From the NCBI GenBank assembly GCA_027623675.1, contig JAQBVF010000004.1, forward strand, positions 32,001-96,000: a stretch of DNA of 64,000 nucleotides, read 5' to 3'. The position numbers were made by a program. This DNA comes from Chloroflexota bacterium (GTDB lineage Bacteria > Chloroflexota > Dehalococcoidia > Lucifugimonadales > UBA3495). This document shows, one piece after another, positions 15,001 to 42,000 of the stretch (positions within the stretch are counted from its first letter, which is position 1; each line of letters begins with the position of its first letter).

Positions 15001-18000
15001 GCTTGGCTTCAGCCAGTCTGCGGTCGGTTTCTTTGCGCTCCGTGATGTCTTCGACAAACCCTCCGATGCGGTAGACGTCGCCGGATTCTTCTTTGACGGG
15101 GAACCCGCGGCTAGAGATCCAGAGCTGCCGCCCGTCGGCGCGCATGATGCGGAATTCCTCGTACAGCTCTCCGGTGATAAGTGCCGTTGCAGCAGCCTTG
15201 TTGACGCGCTCGCGGTCTTCCGGATGCACCAGGTCCAGCCAGGAAAAAGATTTTTCATAAAGTATGCCGGCGGGGATACCCCATATCCGCTCGACGCTGG
15301 GACTGACGTAGACCACCTTGTGCGGCCTCAAGTCGGATAGCCAGAAGCCGCCGTGGACGTTGTCGGCGATCTGACGGAAACGGGCCTCGTTCTCTTGGGC
15401 TTCGACGATCGCCCTCTTCCTCTTTTCGTTAAGGTCGTGATTGACCATTGCGCCGCCCAGCAGGGGGCCGACACGCTCGGCCAAACTCAGGTCAGCTCCC
15501 GCGAATGGATCACCCGACCTGGCCAGGATGAGGACTCCAACCACAGCTTCACCCAACTTGAGAGGCATAACCAGGATCGAGTCATGTCCTGCGTCCCAGA
15601 ACGTTTGCGTTTGCAGAAAACCTTCTGGCGTGCCACCCGGACTGTCGCGGTTGATCACCGCGCTTTCCGCCGACCGGGCGGTATCGAGCGCCACACCGCC
15701 CAAAGCTGCTCGGACGGCGGCTCCGTGATCTGGAGCGGTGTTTTCTCCAAGCACGAATGGCGTGCTGACGGTCTGCTGCTCCACGTCGACCGAATCGATC
15801 GAGATGTGCTGGTACGTGATTAACTTGCCCAACTCGGTGGCGAAATTGGAGAATTTATCCTCGATTCCCTGGGGAGAGCTAACGATGCGGCCGATGTTCG
15901 CCTCTACTTCCCTCTCTTGGATCTCCCTGTTGCGGTGTAGGTCCAACTCGTGATTCGCGAACGCACCGCTACGCAGATCGCTGCCCCGTTCTTCCTGCAG
16001 GCCGACATTCTCTATCAGCGCCCCAAGCATGCCGGTGACGGCGGTTACGAGTTGGACGGTATCCGGATGGAAATGGTCGACTTCGGTTGAGGAGAACGCC
16101 AGCATTCCCACCAGGTTTTCATCGGCCTGGACCGGGCAGATGAGGAAGGAACGGTAAAGAGGCGAATAATACTGCGGCATGGGCTCTTTGAGCTTGGCGG
16201 TATCGCTGATCACCAATGTGGTGCGCTCCCTGAAGGCGCGCGCTATCGGGCAGCAGCGGTGGTTGGATAGAGGCAGGTCAAAATCTCTATCCTTCATGGT
16301 GGACTTCTCGGTGGGAGAGTAGGCCGCAACCAAACGGAGTCCGCTGCCGGAATCGTTCAGGGTCCTTAGACTGGCCACGGCAGAGTTGGCGGTACGGGCT
16401 AACACCGCCAGCATCATTTCAGATTTTAGGCTGTGGTCCATCGGCCTAGTCAGAATCGCGGCGATCTCCGCCAAGGCGTCGAGCTCTCGCCGCCATTGCC
16501 GGCCAGTCTCCGATAGAGTGACTTCGGTGGGCTGCCGGCCGCGCCTATTTAAAGAACCTAGAATATCGCGGATAATCGTCAATCTAACTGAATCCTTGGT
16601 CTAAAAACGGCACGGTGAATTTCGTGTAGGTTCAAACCGTGGCGATACCGTGGTTGTACAAGGACAGGCGAATACGCCCCCAACCTGAGATTACAATTTG
16701 TTTGTATGGCCGGAATATCAGTTGGGTAATAATTTTGTGAGAGAGCACTGAGGTCGATTGTTGCTCATCATATTGATTTCGGCGCCTTGGCCCAGCCGTC
16801 GCCCCAGGGAACATCGGCAAGGTTCCTGGAGCGGCGCACTTCGTTGATGGTGAGGACGCCCCGGTCCAAAAGCTGCGCCTCACGCGAAACCCGGACGGAC
16901 TCGTCTTCGCTCAAACCCTCGATTGCGGAGAGGTCGAATTCAAGCTCCAGACCGGGGTACCCCAGGGCCGGAAAAAGGTTGCGTGTGACCTGGTCAGCGA
17001 TGAAGCGCATCTCAGGGACCATGGTATTGCGCCAGAAGAAACGCTCGGCGGCGTTCACGTTGGAGAATGTGGCCCGTTCCAGGTCCGACAGGAGCGGCTT
17101 GGGGACACCGTAGGTCCGGCTGACCTCCTCCAGGCTCCAACGCAGGCCCTGGATGAAGTCCATCTCGCGGTGGCTGATGCCCAGGGTTTTGATGTCCCGG
17201 ACAAAGCTGGCCACGGCGGGCCGGTGCGCTTGCGAGGGGCCGCGAAACCGGGCTTCCCAACGCCGGTAGAACTCCTCCATCTCGTTGTCGGTCATAGTCT
17301 CGTTGGTCAGCAAGACAAAGTCGGGTTGGGCGGAGTTGCGTAGGAAATTACGGTTGAATCGTAGGCTGTCCTTCCCCATGTCGGCCGACATGCGCAGCGG
17401 GGCGATGGGCGACAGGCCGGCGTAGTCTTCCAGCGGGTTGAAGTACCGGAACCAGACCATCTCGTCGGGCGTGTAGGCCACGCGCCCGTCCCGCCCGTTG
17501 TAGACGAATCCTCGGATGTGCTGGCCGCGGTCCGGTACGATGCTAACCCGGTCGGGCCGCAGGGGCCACAACTCTGGTTGCCCCTTCTCGTTGCGCTCGA
17601 TCGACCAGAAGGCAGACCCCCATAGGTTCAGGTAGATCTCCGTGGCCCGCCAGAGGTCGCTGCCGTTATACCAGCGGTTGGCGTGTTCCAAGATTCGTTG
17701 GGCCGGGTGGCCGCGTTCCACGGGCACCCGGCTCCCGGATTCAGTGGTGCGGTATACGACCGCCGGAGCGCGGCTCAGGGCGTCGGACCGCAACCGGATG
17801 GCTGCGTATACCGGCACCGAGGTGGCGTAATATTCGCCGTACTCGGTGCGTGCCCAACCGCCGTTGCTTCCGGCGAACCCTGGGAACCCGTCGACGTCCA
17901 CGGTTGACGCGCGGTTGGCCCGTTGGACGGTGTCCAAGTCTCGGGCTGAGTGTCTTGAAAACCCAGGCAGAAAACCTGGCGCCAGATCCAAAGCCTGTGC

Positions 18001-39000: not shown

Positions 39001-42000
39001 AGGGAGCTGTCCAGCATCCGGGAATTCTACGACTCCAGGATCGACGCGGAGATCCCTCCCCTCAAAGAGGAATTGGACCGCATCGGCGGGCAGTTGAGCC
39101 AGGTGCAGGAGATGTGGCGGGATGGGGAGAAGCGGTCCCTGCTGTCCCGCCACGCCGGCGAAAGGTCCAGGGTTGCTTTCGGAAAATACGCCGGACTGGA
39201 CCATCTGGACATGGCCTGCGTGCGCAGCCTGCTAACCGCCCAGATGCGTGAGCCTTCTGGCGTCAACCCCCGCATGCTGGACGACTGGCAGTCCAACCTG
39301 AAGGCGGCCATGGACTCCACGTCTTCCGGCTCCGGCGACGAACTGGTGGATACTCAAGAAGCCCGGGCGCTGTGGGACGACGTCAATCTGGAGACCTCGA
39401 TCGCTCCCCTGTTCAACACCGTGCAGATGCCCAGCAACCCCTTTCAGATCCCCCTGCAGATGGGCGACGTCAACTGGTATCCCGGCACTGAGAACGTGGC
39501 GACCAAGAGCACCAGCCTGACCACCGCCCGCCAGACCCTGACCGCCTACGAGCTGGTCGCCGAGGTTCCCTGGTCCTACGACCTGGACGAGGACTCGGTC
39601 ATCGCCATGATGGAGGAACTCCGGCGCAGCCTGATGCGAAACGCCCGCGAGGTGATCGACGACGTGATCTTGAACGGCGACACCACCGCAACCAACAACA
39701 TCAACGCCGACGGGACCACCATCGCCAGCACCGACGCGGGCAAGGGCCAATGGCTGCTGGGGTTCGACGGCCTGCTGCATCTGCCGCTGGTGGACAACAC
39801 CGGCCAGAGCATTGACCACAACGCCGCCGTCTCCGATGACATGTTTAACGAGGTCCGCTCCAAGCTGGGCAAGTACGGGGTGCGGCCCTCCGAAGCGGTC
39901 TACGTCACCGACGTGAACACCTTCATAAGGTCGCTCAGCGTTTCCAACTTCCGCACGCTGGACAAATTCGGCCCCCAGGCAACCCTGGCGATCCGGCAAC
40001 CAAGCAAACGTTAACGGCGGGCTATTTGCCCGCCGTTATTTTTTTCTTCCGCCGGCCCAATGATGACACCCTTCTGGCTTCGGGCTATACTGGCCTAGCC
40101 AGCCCAAATCGCCTAAGATCGGCTAAAACAATAGGACATCCACGCCTTGAACGACCAAATTCTCGTTGAGTCTGATTCTCCCATCGCCACGGTCACCTTT
40201 AACCGGCCCAGCCAACGAAACGCCATCAGCTTTGCCATGTGGCGCCGGTTCACCGACATCATGCAAGCTCTCGACGCTGACCGCGCTATCCGCGCCGTGG
40301 TGATCACCGGAGCCGGCGGCGAATCATTCTCGGCGGGGGCCGACATCCAGGATTTCGATGACTACCGGTCCGACTCGACCAAGGGCCGTGGCTACAACGA
40401 AGCCGTGAACGGGGCTCTCAAGATTCTCTCCGAAATGAACACGCCCACGATCTCGATGATTCAGGGTTTCGCCGTCGGCGGCGGCTGCGAACTGGCCGTG
40501 GCCACCGACCTGCGCATAGCCAGTGATGACAGCCGCTTGGGAATCCCGGTGGGCAAGCTGGGCATCAGTATCGGACACCGCGAGATGCGCGGCCTGGTCA
40601 ATCTGGTGGGCAAAGGAAACGCCATGTACATCCTGCTGTCCGCCCGCCTGCTCGACGCCCAAGAATCCCTGCGGATCGGACTGGTCAACCAGGTGGTCGC
40701 TCCGGGTGAGCTTCACGAATACACCTACAAGCTGGCCTCGGACATCGCATCGTTGGCGCCGCTCTCCCACGCGGTTAACAAGTTAACCATGCAGCAGGTG
40801 CAGAACAAACCCTCCCTGGAGAACCTCACGGCTGAGGAAGAGGACCTGCCCCTCACCCAGTTTGACACCAAAGACTACCTGGAAGGCTACAAAGCCTTCT
40901 TGGAAAAGCGGCGCCCCAACTTTGTTGGGGAGTAACGTCCCAGACCGGCATCGACTCAGAGGTCAAACCAAGCTGGGAGAGACCGTTTGACGGCGCGCGC
41001 ACCCAAGGTCCGGGCCGACCGGCTTTTGTATGAGAGGGGCTTGGCCGAGTCCCGCGAGCAAGCCCAGGCGCTCATCATGGAGGGCGTGGTCTACACTCCA
41101 TCGGGCCGCGTCTTGAAAGCTGGTTCAACCCTGCCCGGAGATGTGGAAATTGAGGTGAGGGGCCGACTGCCGTTCGTGAGCCGTGGCGGCGTCAAATTGG
41201 CCCACGCTCTGGACGAATTTCAACTCGATGTCTCCGGACTGACTGGCCTGGACGTGGGCGCCTCCACAGGTGGCTTCACCGATTGCCTCCTGCAACGCGG
41301 CGCGCAGAAGGTCTACGCTGTGGACGTGGGGCACGGTCAGATGAGCTACGGTCTGCGGCAGGACCAGCGAGTGATCGTGATTGAAAAGACCAACGCCCGC
41401 CACCCCTTTGACCTGCCGGAGCCGGTGGACCTGGTGGTCATGGACGTTTCGTTCATCTCAATTACCATGGTTATTCCCGAAGCAACCCGGCACCTGGTCC
41501 CAGGCAGGTACATCGCCGCGCTGGTCAAACCCCAATTCGAGGCACCCAAAGAACAGGTGGGCCGCGGCGGCGTGATCAAAGATCCCAAGATCCATGCCGC
41601 CGTGTTGGGGAAGATGGTCAACTGGGCCGTGGGGCAAGGCCTGCGAGTCAGGAACATCTGCCGGTCTCCGATACAGGGCGACGCGGGCAACCGGGAATTC
41701 TTCATCCTGCTGCAAAAACCGGAATAGGACAGACCCTGCCAGAACCCGACCAGAATCAACCAATCCGCATTAATAGGAGGTCCTAGATGGACGTTTCAGA
41801 GATTGCAGAGATACTCACCGCCAGGGGAAAGACGGTATCCGTTGCCGAGGCCGACACCGCCGGTCTGATCGGCTACATGCTGGGCAGCATCCCCGGCAGT
41901 TCCAAGTATTTCCCCGGCGGCGTAATCGCCTACACCGGCGGCCTGAAAGAGAAAGTGCTGGGCGTGGCCGACGACGTTTCTCCCACCCACGGCACCGTCA

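Follow-up and report, generated by a model that had tools for sequence, protein, structure and literature searches.

Our analysis suggests that the phage-like genes considered here belong to an old, chromosomally fixed, phage-derived module of HK97-type head and DNA-packaging genes, resembling a gene transfer agent (GTA), which was recently inactivated in the genome under study (G000); we put the probability of this reading at roughly 0.6. The module would consist of two blocks passed down vertically with the chromosome, block A with the large terminase (TerL) and portal genes and block B with the protease and capsid genes. In the window, by which we mean the whole stretch of 64,000 nucleotides that was analysed, about 18 kb of housekeeping genes separate the two blocks (all coordinates are window positions unless a contig is given). 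The lineage is Chloroflexota, Dehalococcoidia-like, and in a protein-cluster search the close capsid homologues bear only the names 'Chloroflexi' or 'Dehalococcoidia bacterium'. The sequencing runs containing this DNA carry the labels aquatic metagenome and groundwater metagenome.

Table 1. Features of the two blocks and of the deletion junction in the window.
Feature	Position	Strand	Evidence
HK97-family portal, 453 aa, apparently intact	16768..18129	-	PF04860 6.6e-70, phrog_2662 1.5e-72
Large terminase TerL, ORF of 492 aa	18120..19598	-	phrog_2 7.2e-40
Small conserved ORF, core of ~61 aa	19871..20137	-	tblastn matches close to TerL or portal in relatives
Prohead maturation protease, S78 type, 275 aa	38011..38838	+	PF04586 9e-6, phrog_80 2.6e-15, phrog_617 1.3e-20
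HK97-type major capsid gene, 351 aa, truncated	38959..40014	+	PF05065 2.5e-7, phrog_10 1.5e-12
Deletion junction, 29 bp	39987..40015	.	stands in place of 4,339 bp, G205 C7:160993-165331
Enoyl-CoA hydratase (ECH) and tlyA-type FtsJ methyltransferase	40147..41727	+	PF00378 2.3e-51, PF01728 9.7e-44

Pfam and PHROG searches found portal, TerL, protease and capsid genes where the preliminary description had placed them (Table 1). The portal scores 236 bits for PF04860, whose cut-off is 39, which places it in the HK97 portal family; the solved portals nearest to it are 8cez (3.8e-19) and the RcGTA portal 6tba (5.9e-19), the latter match being no better than that to a phage portal and indicating no specific kinship. 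The Walker A (KSGNGLGKG), Walker B (LIVVDEAEG) and acidic nuclease motifs of TerL align with those of relatives, as in a terminase with both ATPase and nuclease, and a profile search gave no Pfam match for this protein. Since the Arg/Pro-rich first ~40 residues of its ORF are absent from relatives, translation probably begins at the internal ATG of residue 43, near position 19472. The protease, which adjoins the capsid gene, reaches 26.4 bits for PF04586 against a cut-off of 21 and is predicted to be a prohead protease of the S78 type. No small terminase (TerS) was recognised at any locus. The small ORF listed after TerL in Table 1 matched no Pfam or PHROG family and has a dN/dS of 0.06-0.08; its homologues lie close to TerL or portal in G137, G197, G154, G004, G013, G193 and G205 (families f1, f5 and f14), and it may be either a member of the module or merely a conserved neighbour. 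An MFS gene and two small ORFs flank TerL alike in G000, G137 and G197, and an FAD oxidoreductase is a further flank common to the three.

The four genes had been called the only phage structural genes of this genome, to which we must add one small ORF of 108 aa, on another contig (C13:112942-113268), with similarity to a protein encoded after the capsid in relatives (44% identity, 5e-18). Integration, replication and lysogeny genes were all absent from the window in Pfam and PHROG profile searches. An ORF at 26430-27452 with a C-terminal winged helix of the D5/primase type (phrog_1156, 4e-11) was considered as a replication gene of the element and rejected, since it is a conserved host gene whose homologues, present in 27 of the 31 genomes of the family, occupy sites unrelated to the module.

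The capsid gene of G000 is indeed cut short, as had been reported. Alignment with 10 relatives shows homology stopping after ...FGPQATL, at residue 345, where the relatives have about 100 more conserved residues; the PF05065 match covers only positions 4-123 of the 280 in the profile; and tblastn did not find the missing C-terminal part elsewhere in G000. The full HK97-fold major capsid protein is present in relatives and not in G000: in all 20 relatives measured, which represent four families, the frame spans 438-445 aa from match start to stop. A genome of the same genus, G205, shows collinearity with window positions 8134-63932, and in it the protease is followed by a full capsid of 445 aa, an IS, four small ORFs, an adaptor-like gene of 274 aa, and then ECH and tlyA. 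By blastn, window 38939-39986 corresponds to G205 C7:159940-160992 (84%) and window 40016-40923 to C7:165332-166241 (81%). What is missing from G000 between these two matches comprises the final 100 codons of the capsid, four small genes and the head-tail adaptor-like gene; the G000 capsid frame takes its last 6 codons and its stop from the far side of the junction. ECH and tlyA, which remain collinear at 88% and 87% amino acid identity, lie 3' of the adaptor in G205 and abut the truncated capsid in G000. The proposed link between the module and tlyA thus holds within the genus, but no tlyA match turned up in the 20-kb loci from five further genera of the family. The junction itself is as described earlier: a contig of run X1 (5240 nt, depth 48) crosses it without a difference and two contigs of run X2 meet at 40016-40025, where either run may be the very source of this DNA and not independent support.

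In all likelihood the deletion removed the capsid function in G000, and this copy of the gene is probably dead, while TerL, portal and protease still appear intact from their sequences. We found no rate acceleration on the G000 branch, which, together with the low dN/dS relative to G205, argues that the loss was recent. The earlier claim that selection keeps the module therefore fails for G000 itself, where the deletion lately broke the capsid gene.

How widespread is the intact module? Across the order, the capsid occurs in 75 of 201 genomes (47 of the 124 of high quality) and the portal in 81 of 201, figures consistent with the distribution given in the preliminary description. Within the family, 24 of 31 genomes have the capsid, 22 of these 24 with one full-length match. 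Counted from the order-wide tables, portal and TerL accompany the capsid in 73 of the 75 capsid-bearing genomes, and on this ground an encapsulin, that is, a lone HK97-fold shell with cargo and neither portal nor terminase, was rejected. A protease search over 41 capsid loci gave 32 matches in 31 loci and none in 12, and the protease stands immediately 5' of the capsid in 29 of the 41. The spacing between the TerL-portal and protease-capsid blocks ranges in relatives from 4 kb to over 1 Mb (the capsid-portal distances reported before for G145, G013, G004, G111 and G137 were reproduced), and even unlinked blocks are kept together throughout whole families. Beyond these genomes, 1386 protein clusters match the capsid at E <= 1e-20; the best 120 of them are 72-95% identical and 435-451 aa long, except for one 686-aa protease fusion, and many of their members sit on Mb-sized contigs.

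The module appears to have descended with its hosts. The capsid tree (21 genomes) and the RpoB tree agree in their supported clades, with a Mantel r of 0.91, and the portal (12 taxa) and TerL (10 taxa) trees give r of 0.93 and 0.85, even though 4 kb to over 1 Mb separates the two blocks; the permutation result, 0 of 2000 in each case, overstates independence, since the genomes compared are kin. The flanks of the blocks are syntenic within family and genus. Overall dN/dS is 0.06-0.4, with dS and dN/dS similar to those of flanking genes, although dS by NG86 is partly saturated and GC3 bias affects the values. Between G180 and G078 it is 0.13 for capsid and portal, 0.15 for TerL and 0.25 for the tube gene (flanks 0.04-0.14); between G154 and G004 the capsid gives 0.06; and between G000 and G205 the values are 0.07 for capsid residues 1-345, 0.17 for TerL, 0.07-0.13 for the portal and 0.15 for the protease (flanks 0.065-0.22). 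Purifying selection, as read from these sequences, acts on the module with roughly the strength seen for neighbouring cell genes. Together with the single capsid match in most genomes of the family, these observations bear out the earlier proposal of vertical inheritance under purifying selection, as opposed to a recent prophage, and we regard such inheritance as very probable.

Could these genes nevertheless be a neutral wreck, the remnants of one old prophage that was never useful to the host and decays slowly, its frames left intact by high G+C and chance? The G000 copy is broken, distal tail genes are already missing, the module has been lost from 7 of 31 genomes of the family and 126 of 201 of the order, and many genomes bear independent lesions: an IS within TerL in G137, an in-frame stop in TerL after Walker B in G052, and split genes for portal (G197, G205), TerL (G170) and capsid (G224), of which some frameshifts may be long-read assembly errors. 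However, over divergences at which RpoB identity falls to 70-79%, neutral sequence is not expected to show capsid frames so uniform, dN/dS as low as that of flanking housekeeping genes, co-retention of unlinked blocks in whole families, or a capsid that evolves more slowly than RpoB across three families (median capsid/RpoB path-length ratio 0.72). We therefore consider the wreck improbable. For a selected module, the frequent independent lesions fit a function that is often dispensable.

The gene set after the capsid varies between lineages. In intact relatives, block B continues into small genes for head completion and a head-tail adaptor gene, to which many lineages add a tail terminator and a tail tube. 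Adaptor, terminator and tube genes lie directly 3' of the capsid in relatives including G137, G197, G180 and G078 (four genera of the same family); the tube gene was found in four f1 genera and in f52, and a LamG-like protein of 655-707 aa also occurs at the loci of family f1. G205, G111 and families f5 and f14 have capsid, portal, protease, connectors and terminase without tail genes, and profile searches of G013 and G133, from a genus with near-closed genomes, gave no match for adaptor, terminator or tube. Some lineages retain only TerL, portal, protease and capsid, which are the only genes kept in all lineages. G000 has none of the adaptor, terminator, tube and LamG-like genes, its post-capsid genes having gone with the 4.3-kb deletion that truncated the capsid. 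The epithet 'tail-less' is thus apt for the lineages with four core genes but does not describe the ancestral state. Tape measure, baseplate and distal-tail genes were not recognised at any annotated locus of the relatives. Nor did these loci contain integrase, lysis or replication modules; only IS transposases were seen there and, in some, an HTH/ImmA-like pair.

A module of heads with few tail genes invites comparison with capsid-forming PICIs (cf-PICIs), satellites that make and fill their own heads but rely on the tails of infecting phages, whether to spread or to interfere with the phage. TerL, portal, protease, capsid and connectors with little or no tail resemble the cf-PICI gene list in the part of its description that we draw on (10.1101/2022.09.08.507074); a foreign tail would attach through adaptor and terminator; and an HTH repressor and an ImmA-like protease adjoin TerL at four loci. 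But a cf-PICI is a compact, horizontally spreading mobile island that encodes an integrase, HNH and TerS besides regulatory and replication proteins. At the annotated loci, no integrase, AlpA or primase-replication genes occur, alone or gathered with regulatory genes in one compact island, and neither HNH nor TerS was seen. The blocks here are dispersed over the chromosome, so that they could not package themselves as a unit, they co-diverge strictly with the host, and many lineages have a tube gene of their own. A tail-pirating satellite thus seems unlikely.

Much less likely still is an active temperate phage lineage co-speciating with its hosts. Related true prophages do occur in the order, and 128 related stretches are called viral in IMG/VR; yet the IMG/VR contigs nearest to this type are only 4-15 kb long and carry the same head-neck blocks with no other phage modules, and a lineage with blocks up to more than 1 Mb apart, lacking integrase, replication, lysis and distal-tail genes, and with a single capsid match in nearly all capsid-bearing genomes of the family, hardly behaves as a phage. 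The true prophages of G038 and G041, of the myovirus type, share the HK97-type families, their capsids being 48-52% identical to that of the module, but they are compact, and the capsid search hit each of the two genomes twice; they also encode a sheath, Neck1, a gp7-like head morphogenesis protein and a TerL from another family, phrog_38. Set against true or defective prophages, the module stands out by its single copy, its synteny, its division into two parts and a conservation like that of host genes.

The preferred reading, a GTA-like module, rests on the comparison with RcGTA-type GTAs, whose features we take from parts of four accounts (PMC6821227, PMC5026251, PMC10883770, PMC8987985). 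Like these GTAs, the module has HK97-type structural genes of phage origin and lacks genes for integration, replication or lysogeny, both in the window and at the relatives' loci; it is chromosomally fixed, vertical and co-evolving with its host under purifying selection; and its genes lie at more than one locus and are frequently lost in some lineages. It differs in that the head and packaging genes themselves stand in two blocks, in that no TerS was recognised, in belonging to another phylum and in being known from genes alone. Moreover, genes for a tape measure, distal tail, hub or fibres were not seen at the annotated loci, so that in place of a complete particle with a DNA-delivering tail there are at most adaptor, terminator, tube and the f1 LamG-like protein. 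A GTA-like particle function in relatives, as suggested by gene content and evolution, is accordingly a tentative proposal.

Some other role in the cell for the head and packaging proteins, such as defence by interference with phage assembly or packaging, or DNA sequestration or export in tail-less capsids, would suit the retention of just TerL, portal, protease and capsid by all lineages, and a capsid that evolves slowest of the module's parts. On the other hand, none of 17 module proteins matched a PADLOC defence model, and no defence genes were noted adjoining the blocks. We know of no precedent for cellular use of a whole portal-terminase-capsid set and think this explanation about as doubtful as the satellite.

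How might a GTA-like module work in intact relatives? The capsid protein, which seems to bear a coiled-coil, scaffold-like N-terminal region, would form a procapsid with portal and protease, whereupon the protease would trim the capsid; DNA pumped by TerL would enter through the portal, and adaptor and terminator proteins would seal the head. This would yield a DNA-filled particle that serves the host as a gene transfer agent would, a process that the very recent deletion in G000, from the last ~100 capsid codons through the adaptor gene, would have rendered inactive. Since the gene set after the capsid differs between lineages, the unit under selection may be less than a complete particle.

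Our analysis of the window and of related genomes leads us to a tentative reading, to which we would assign a probability of about 0.3, namely that a large Dehalococcoidia-like Chloroflexota clade keeps a host-fixed apparatus making DNA-filled phage heads, a new kind of domesticated virus particle. The ORF listing and family scans of the window confirm the four genes of the preliminary description and their positions, with portal and large terminase (TerL) in one block and prohead protease and HK97-type capsid in the other (see table). In the alignment, TerL of this genome (G000) retains the Walker A, Walker B and acidic nuclease motifs in common with its relatives. 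The 18 kb separating the two pairs and the remainder of the window hold apparently ordinary cell genes, including those for an MFS transporter, an FAD oxidoreductase, a Tag glycosylase, a PrpD-like protein, QueC/D/E/F, GGT, cobalamin genes and ComEC/ComEA, and G+C content is even along the whole window. None of 17 module proteins scanned with PADLOC matched a defence model.

Core phage-derived genes and other features discussed in the text (positions in the window unless a contig, C, or locus, L, is named)
Feature	Position	Strand	Matches and remarks
Hybrid histidine kinase, 912 aa	13844-16582	-	GAF-PAS-HisKA-HATPase-receiver
Portal	16768-18129	-	PF04860 6.6e-70; phrog_2662 1.5e-72
Large terminase (TerL)	18120-19598	-	phrog_2 7.2e-40; no Pfam match
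Small ORFs upstream of TerL	19871-20137, 20316-20564		No Pfam or PHROG match
ORF, 340 aa	26430-27452	+	Last ~80 residues, phrog_1156 4e-11
QueE, QueC, QueD and QueF-like genes	29129-31646	-	One cluster
Prohead protease	38011-38838	+	PF04586 26.4 bits (cut-off 21); phrog_80 2.6e-15
HK97-type capsid, 351 aa	38959-40014	+	PF05065 2.5e-7, profile positions 4-123 of 280 only; phrog_10 1.5e-12
GRDB-family candidate selenoprotein, 427 aa	46604-47887	-	PF07355 3.8e-11 on upstream part
ComEC (805 aa) and ComEA	60830-63932	-	DNA-uptake competence
Archaellin-like ORF, 289 aa (G000)	C35:69004-69873 (L045:7004-7873)	-	PF01917 2.9e-21
Lone ORF, 108 aa (G000, outside window)	C13:112942-113268 (L043:7942-8268)	-	No Pfam or PHROG match
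Acidic-repeat membrane protein, 507-547 aa (families f5, f14)	L033:16638-18242, L057:1486-3009, L058:258-1901		Homologue in G000, C17:15643-16938

The capsid of G000, earlier described as cut short, is indeed truncated. Its product matches ten relatives up to ...FGPQATL (residue 345) and ends after six unrelated residues; past that point the ten aligned relatives have about 100 strongly conserved further residues, and all 20 of the 20 relatives measured, which come from four families, have a capsid frame of 438-445 aa between match start and stop. Comparison with G197, a genome of the same family, had suggested an inversion, which we reject, since comparison with the same-genus genome G205, obtained by a family-level search, shows a plain deletion, neither inversion nor mis-assembly. 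The contig of G205 is collinear with window 8134-63932. Its protease gene is followed by a capsid gene of 445 aa, an IS transposase gene on the opposite strand and four small ORFs, three of which resemble proteins encoded behind the capsid elsewhere among the relatives. Next come an adaptor-family gene (274 aa; phrog_442 in relatives) and the enoyl-CoA hydratase and tlyA genes, the two that also lie behind the truncated capsid of G000. In the nucleotide alignment, window 38939-39986 matches G205 C7:159940-160992 (84%) and window 40016-40923 with C7:165332-166241 (81%), and therefore 4,339 bp are missing in G000. The evidence reported earlier on the junction could be reproduced from public metagenome runs: in run X1 a 5240-nt contig (depth 48) spans it with zero differences and in run X2 one contig ends and another begins at 40016-40025, although, because both runs may be source samples, they do not count as independent support. 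The break in X2 is a hint that an allele with the full-length capsid might still segregate in this population.

How could such a deletion arise? G205 carries two copies of its IS, one directly after the capsid gene and the other upstream of TerL, with transposases identical at 435 of 436 residues, and the deletion site in G000 adjoins the spot where the sister genome carries an IS. Because of these two near-identical copies an IS-linked origin of the 4.3-kb deletion is plausible, but it is only a suggestion, since tblastn did not find the IS in G000.

Between G000 and G205, dN/dS is 0.07 for capsid residues 1-345, 0.17 for TerL, 0.07-0.13 for the portal and 0.15 for the protease, next to 0.065-0.22 for nine collinear neighbour genes with dS similar to that of the module genes. 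Moreover, a relative-rate test of G000 against its near relative G111 gives no excess of changes unique to G000 in any of the four genes. Thus the genes were under constraint for nearly all the time since the species split between G000 and G205, and the loss of the module in G000 is very recent. For G000 itself, the earlier proposal that the module has been kept by selection consequently does not stand, as the deletion seen against G205 has cut the capsid very recently.

For the lineage as a whole, the proposal of vertical inheritance under selection fares well. The capsid occurs in 75 of 201 sampled genomes of the order (47/124 high-quality) and the portal in 81 (54/124 high-quality); by the same tables 73 genomes have both, 2 the capsid only and 8 the portal only, two of these last resting on weak matches of 25-26% identity. 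Whole families can be all-or-none for the module, which is present in f5 (5/5), f12 (7/7) and f14 (7/7) and absent in f7, f24 and f27 (0/7 each). In the window's own family (f1) 24 of 31 genomes have the capsid, 22 of the 24 with a single full-length match, the exceptions being G000 (truncated) and G224 (split). Genomes without the module in the order tables are mostly small, about 1.1-2.7 Mb.

The main evidence, as we read it, is topological. Set against RpoB from 20 relatives, which across the range of the module is only ~70% identical, the capsid tree has the same supported groups, namely (G000,G111), (G197,(G137,(G180,G078))), the f5 clade, (G176,G193) and the clade of genus g19, with the backbone alone unresolved. 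We place this agreement ahead of the Mantel statistics (capsid r 0.91, matched by 0/2000 permutations; portal, 12 taxa, r 0.93, 0/2000; TerL, 10 taxa, r 0.85, 0/2000), whose permutation tests overstate independence because the rows compared are relatives. The median capsid/RpoB path ratio is 0.72, and portal and TerL evolve at ~1.7-1.85 times the rate of RpoB. Synteny also supports vertical inheritance: TerL is flanked by an MFS gene and two small ORFs, with an FAD oxidoreductase nearby, in G000, G137 and G197, and three other families include genomes in which the terminator gene is followed by that for ribosomal protein L25. Across all module genes, dN/dS in same-genus pairs is 0.06-0.41, and both dN and dS fall within the range of the flanking genes. 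The evolutionary signature is that of a domesticated element, and the evidence for it is clean, with unlinked blocks that co-diverge with RpoB, a capsid slower than RpoB and dN/dS equal to that of neighbouring genes.

The relatives do not bear out a tail-less module as the ancestral state, as had been proposed. In the own-family genomes G137, G197, G180 and G078, protease and capsid are followed by adaptor, terminator, tube and a 655-707-aa protein without Pfam or PHROG match, whose neighbours in the Atlas are hypothetical proteins of viruses, besides weak leads to LamG-like proteins. Compact loci in five genomes (G193, G001, G054, G049, G075) have, beyond the capsid, small ORFs, a ~280-aa phrog_442 protein (head-tail adaptor) and a ~140-aa phrog_17840 protein (tail terminator), and some of them additionally a major tail protein (phrog_10528 or phrog_9522). 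In the two genomes closest to G000, G111 and G205, the post-capsid genes end at the adaptor. Profile searches of five whole genomes found the adaptor only in G111 and G154, the terminator only in G154 and the tube in none, with no positive control for the tube among those searched. Since these searches gave no adaptor, terminator or tube in G013 and G133, their genus g19 seems to have retained just the core set of four. In the four closed genomes of family f52, TerL-portal lies >1 Mb from a protease-capsid-adaptor-terminator-tube block, and ordinary genes bound both. No tape measure, baseplate, fibre, lysis, integrase or replication gene was seen at the annotated loci of relatives; an HTH repressor and an ImmA-like protease adjoin TerL in four loci. 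The apparatus we propose would have no more than a short neck or tube, and certain lineages would have TerL, portal, protease and capsid alone; it might release tail-less DNA-filled capsids, or the particles might borrow tails from passing phages. The split between portal and protease in f1 and f52 would belong to its normal multilocus organisation.

Some genes elsewhere resemble those near the module. The sole profile match to the adaptor in G000 (model positions 133-214) falls inside the archaellin-like ORF on C35, here in a bacterial genome. A domain of ~80 residues in this ORF corresponds to the central part of the module's adaptor-like proteins (profile E 3.3e-13); we read it as a shared domain and not as an adaptor. 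The lone ORF on C13, between HflX-type GTPase and amidohydrolase genes, is 44% identical (5e-18) to ~95-aa proteins encoded directly after the capsid in relatives, and has no homologue in G205, G111, G137, G197 or G180. The acidic-repeat membrane protein found after the neck genes in f5 and f14 may belong to the module or be a conserved gene next to it.

Decay is common towards the tips of the tree. G137 has an IS within TerL and G052 an in-frame stop directly past Walker B of TerL; the portal is split in G197 and G205, TerL in G170, the capsid in G224, and adaptor, terminator and tube all in G150. The deletion in G000 is a further lesion in the same series. Each lesion is young, because none is common to two genomes, and some frameshifts may be long-read assembly errors. 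We left out of this list the internal-stop flags (one TGA or one TAG) of several portal matches, many of which are probably natural stops read through, since this flag also occurs on the RpoB matches of five genomes. The tlyA gene, earlier put forward as a neighbour of the module, adjoins TerL in G145 and G119 and the adaptor in G205; it has no match in the 20-kb loci of G111, G137, G197, G180 and G078, and we therefore do not count it as evidence for an ancestral link.

True prophages of the same order differ from the module. G038 and G041, with two-copy matches at 48-52% identity for the capsid and 35-38% for the portal, have compact, myovirus-type prophages with another TerL family (phrog_38), a gp7-like head protein, Neck1 and a tail sheath, and at the locus on C1 of G049 there are genes for TerS, a fused portal and the tail tube. 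In IMG/VR there are 128 related stretches; the contigs nearest the f1 type are 4-15 kb long, show only the same head-neck genes, and were probably called viral on their account. The capsid family is abundant in public data (at least 1386 clusters), and virus-detection pipelines file contigs with this capsid as viral.

Several other genes of the window deserve mention. We considered the 340-aa ORF as a replication gene of the element and rejected it, since only its C-terminal winged-helix part matches D5/P4-type primases; 27 of 31 family genomes have it, mostly as a single copy and in varied places away from the module, and looks like a host DNA-binding protein. The queuosine genes, between both phage blocks, have strong matches to phage "auxiliary" PHROGs, yet are collinear host genes in G205, and no DpdA-type gene was seen near the cluster. 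The hybrid histidine kinase directly adjoins the portal gene in G000; in G205 it is missing from that place and an S9 peptidase gene adjoins the portal, so that either G000 gained the kinase gene by insertion or G205 lost it. The GRDB-family entry consists of two same-frame ORFs split by a single TGA at 47318-47320, which, read as selenocysteine, gives one protein (glycine/sarcosine/betaine reductase B-like) with the motif ...TPT-U-PAC.... ComEC and ComEA lie 21 kb from the capsid gene, and would be of interest if the clade proves to exchange DNA via particles.

For the putative particles proposed here, the closest functional analogy is the gene transfer agents (GTAs), but the tail is missing or a stub only. 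GTAs, which are domesticated phage particles, are established in few lineages only, mostly Alphaproteobacteria; the module belongs to another phylum, and its gene set ends at the neck or tube. The cf-PICIs, described as having heads that borrow tails, are alike in gene content, but the module differs by its lack of mobility genes, its dispersed blocks and its vertical descent. We found no earlier description of the module (as SAR202/Chloroflexota prophage, capsid or gene transfer agent) in the literature outside subscription journals; PMC4533152 reports that viruses were detected in SAR202 genomes, and PMC12507015 gave a match in its reference list only.

If our reading is true, this would be the first GTA-like system proposed for Chloroflexota. 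The window itself provides a dated example of loss, one 4.3-kb deletion having killed the capsid with the other three genes still apparently untouched. As a corollary, should the genes turn out to be those of the host, some of the "viruses" credited to the clade would not be viruses.
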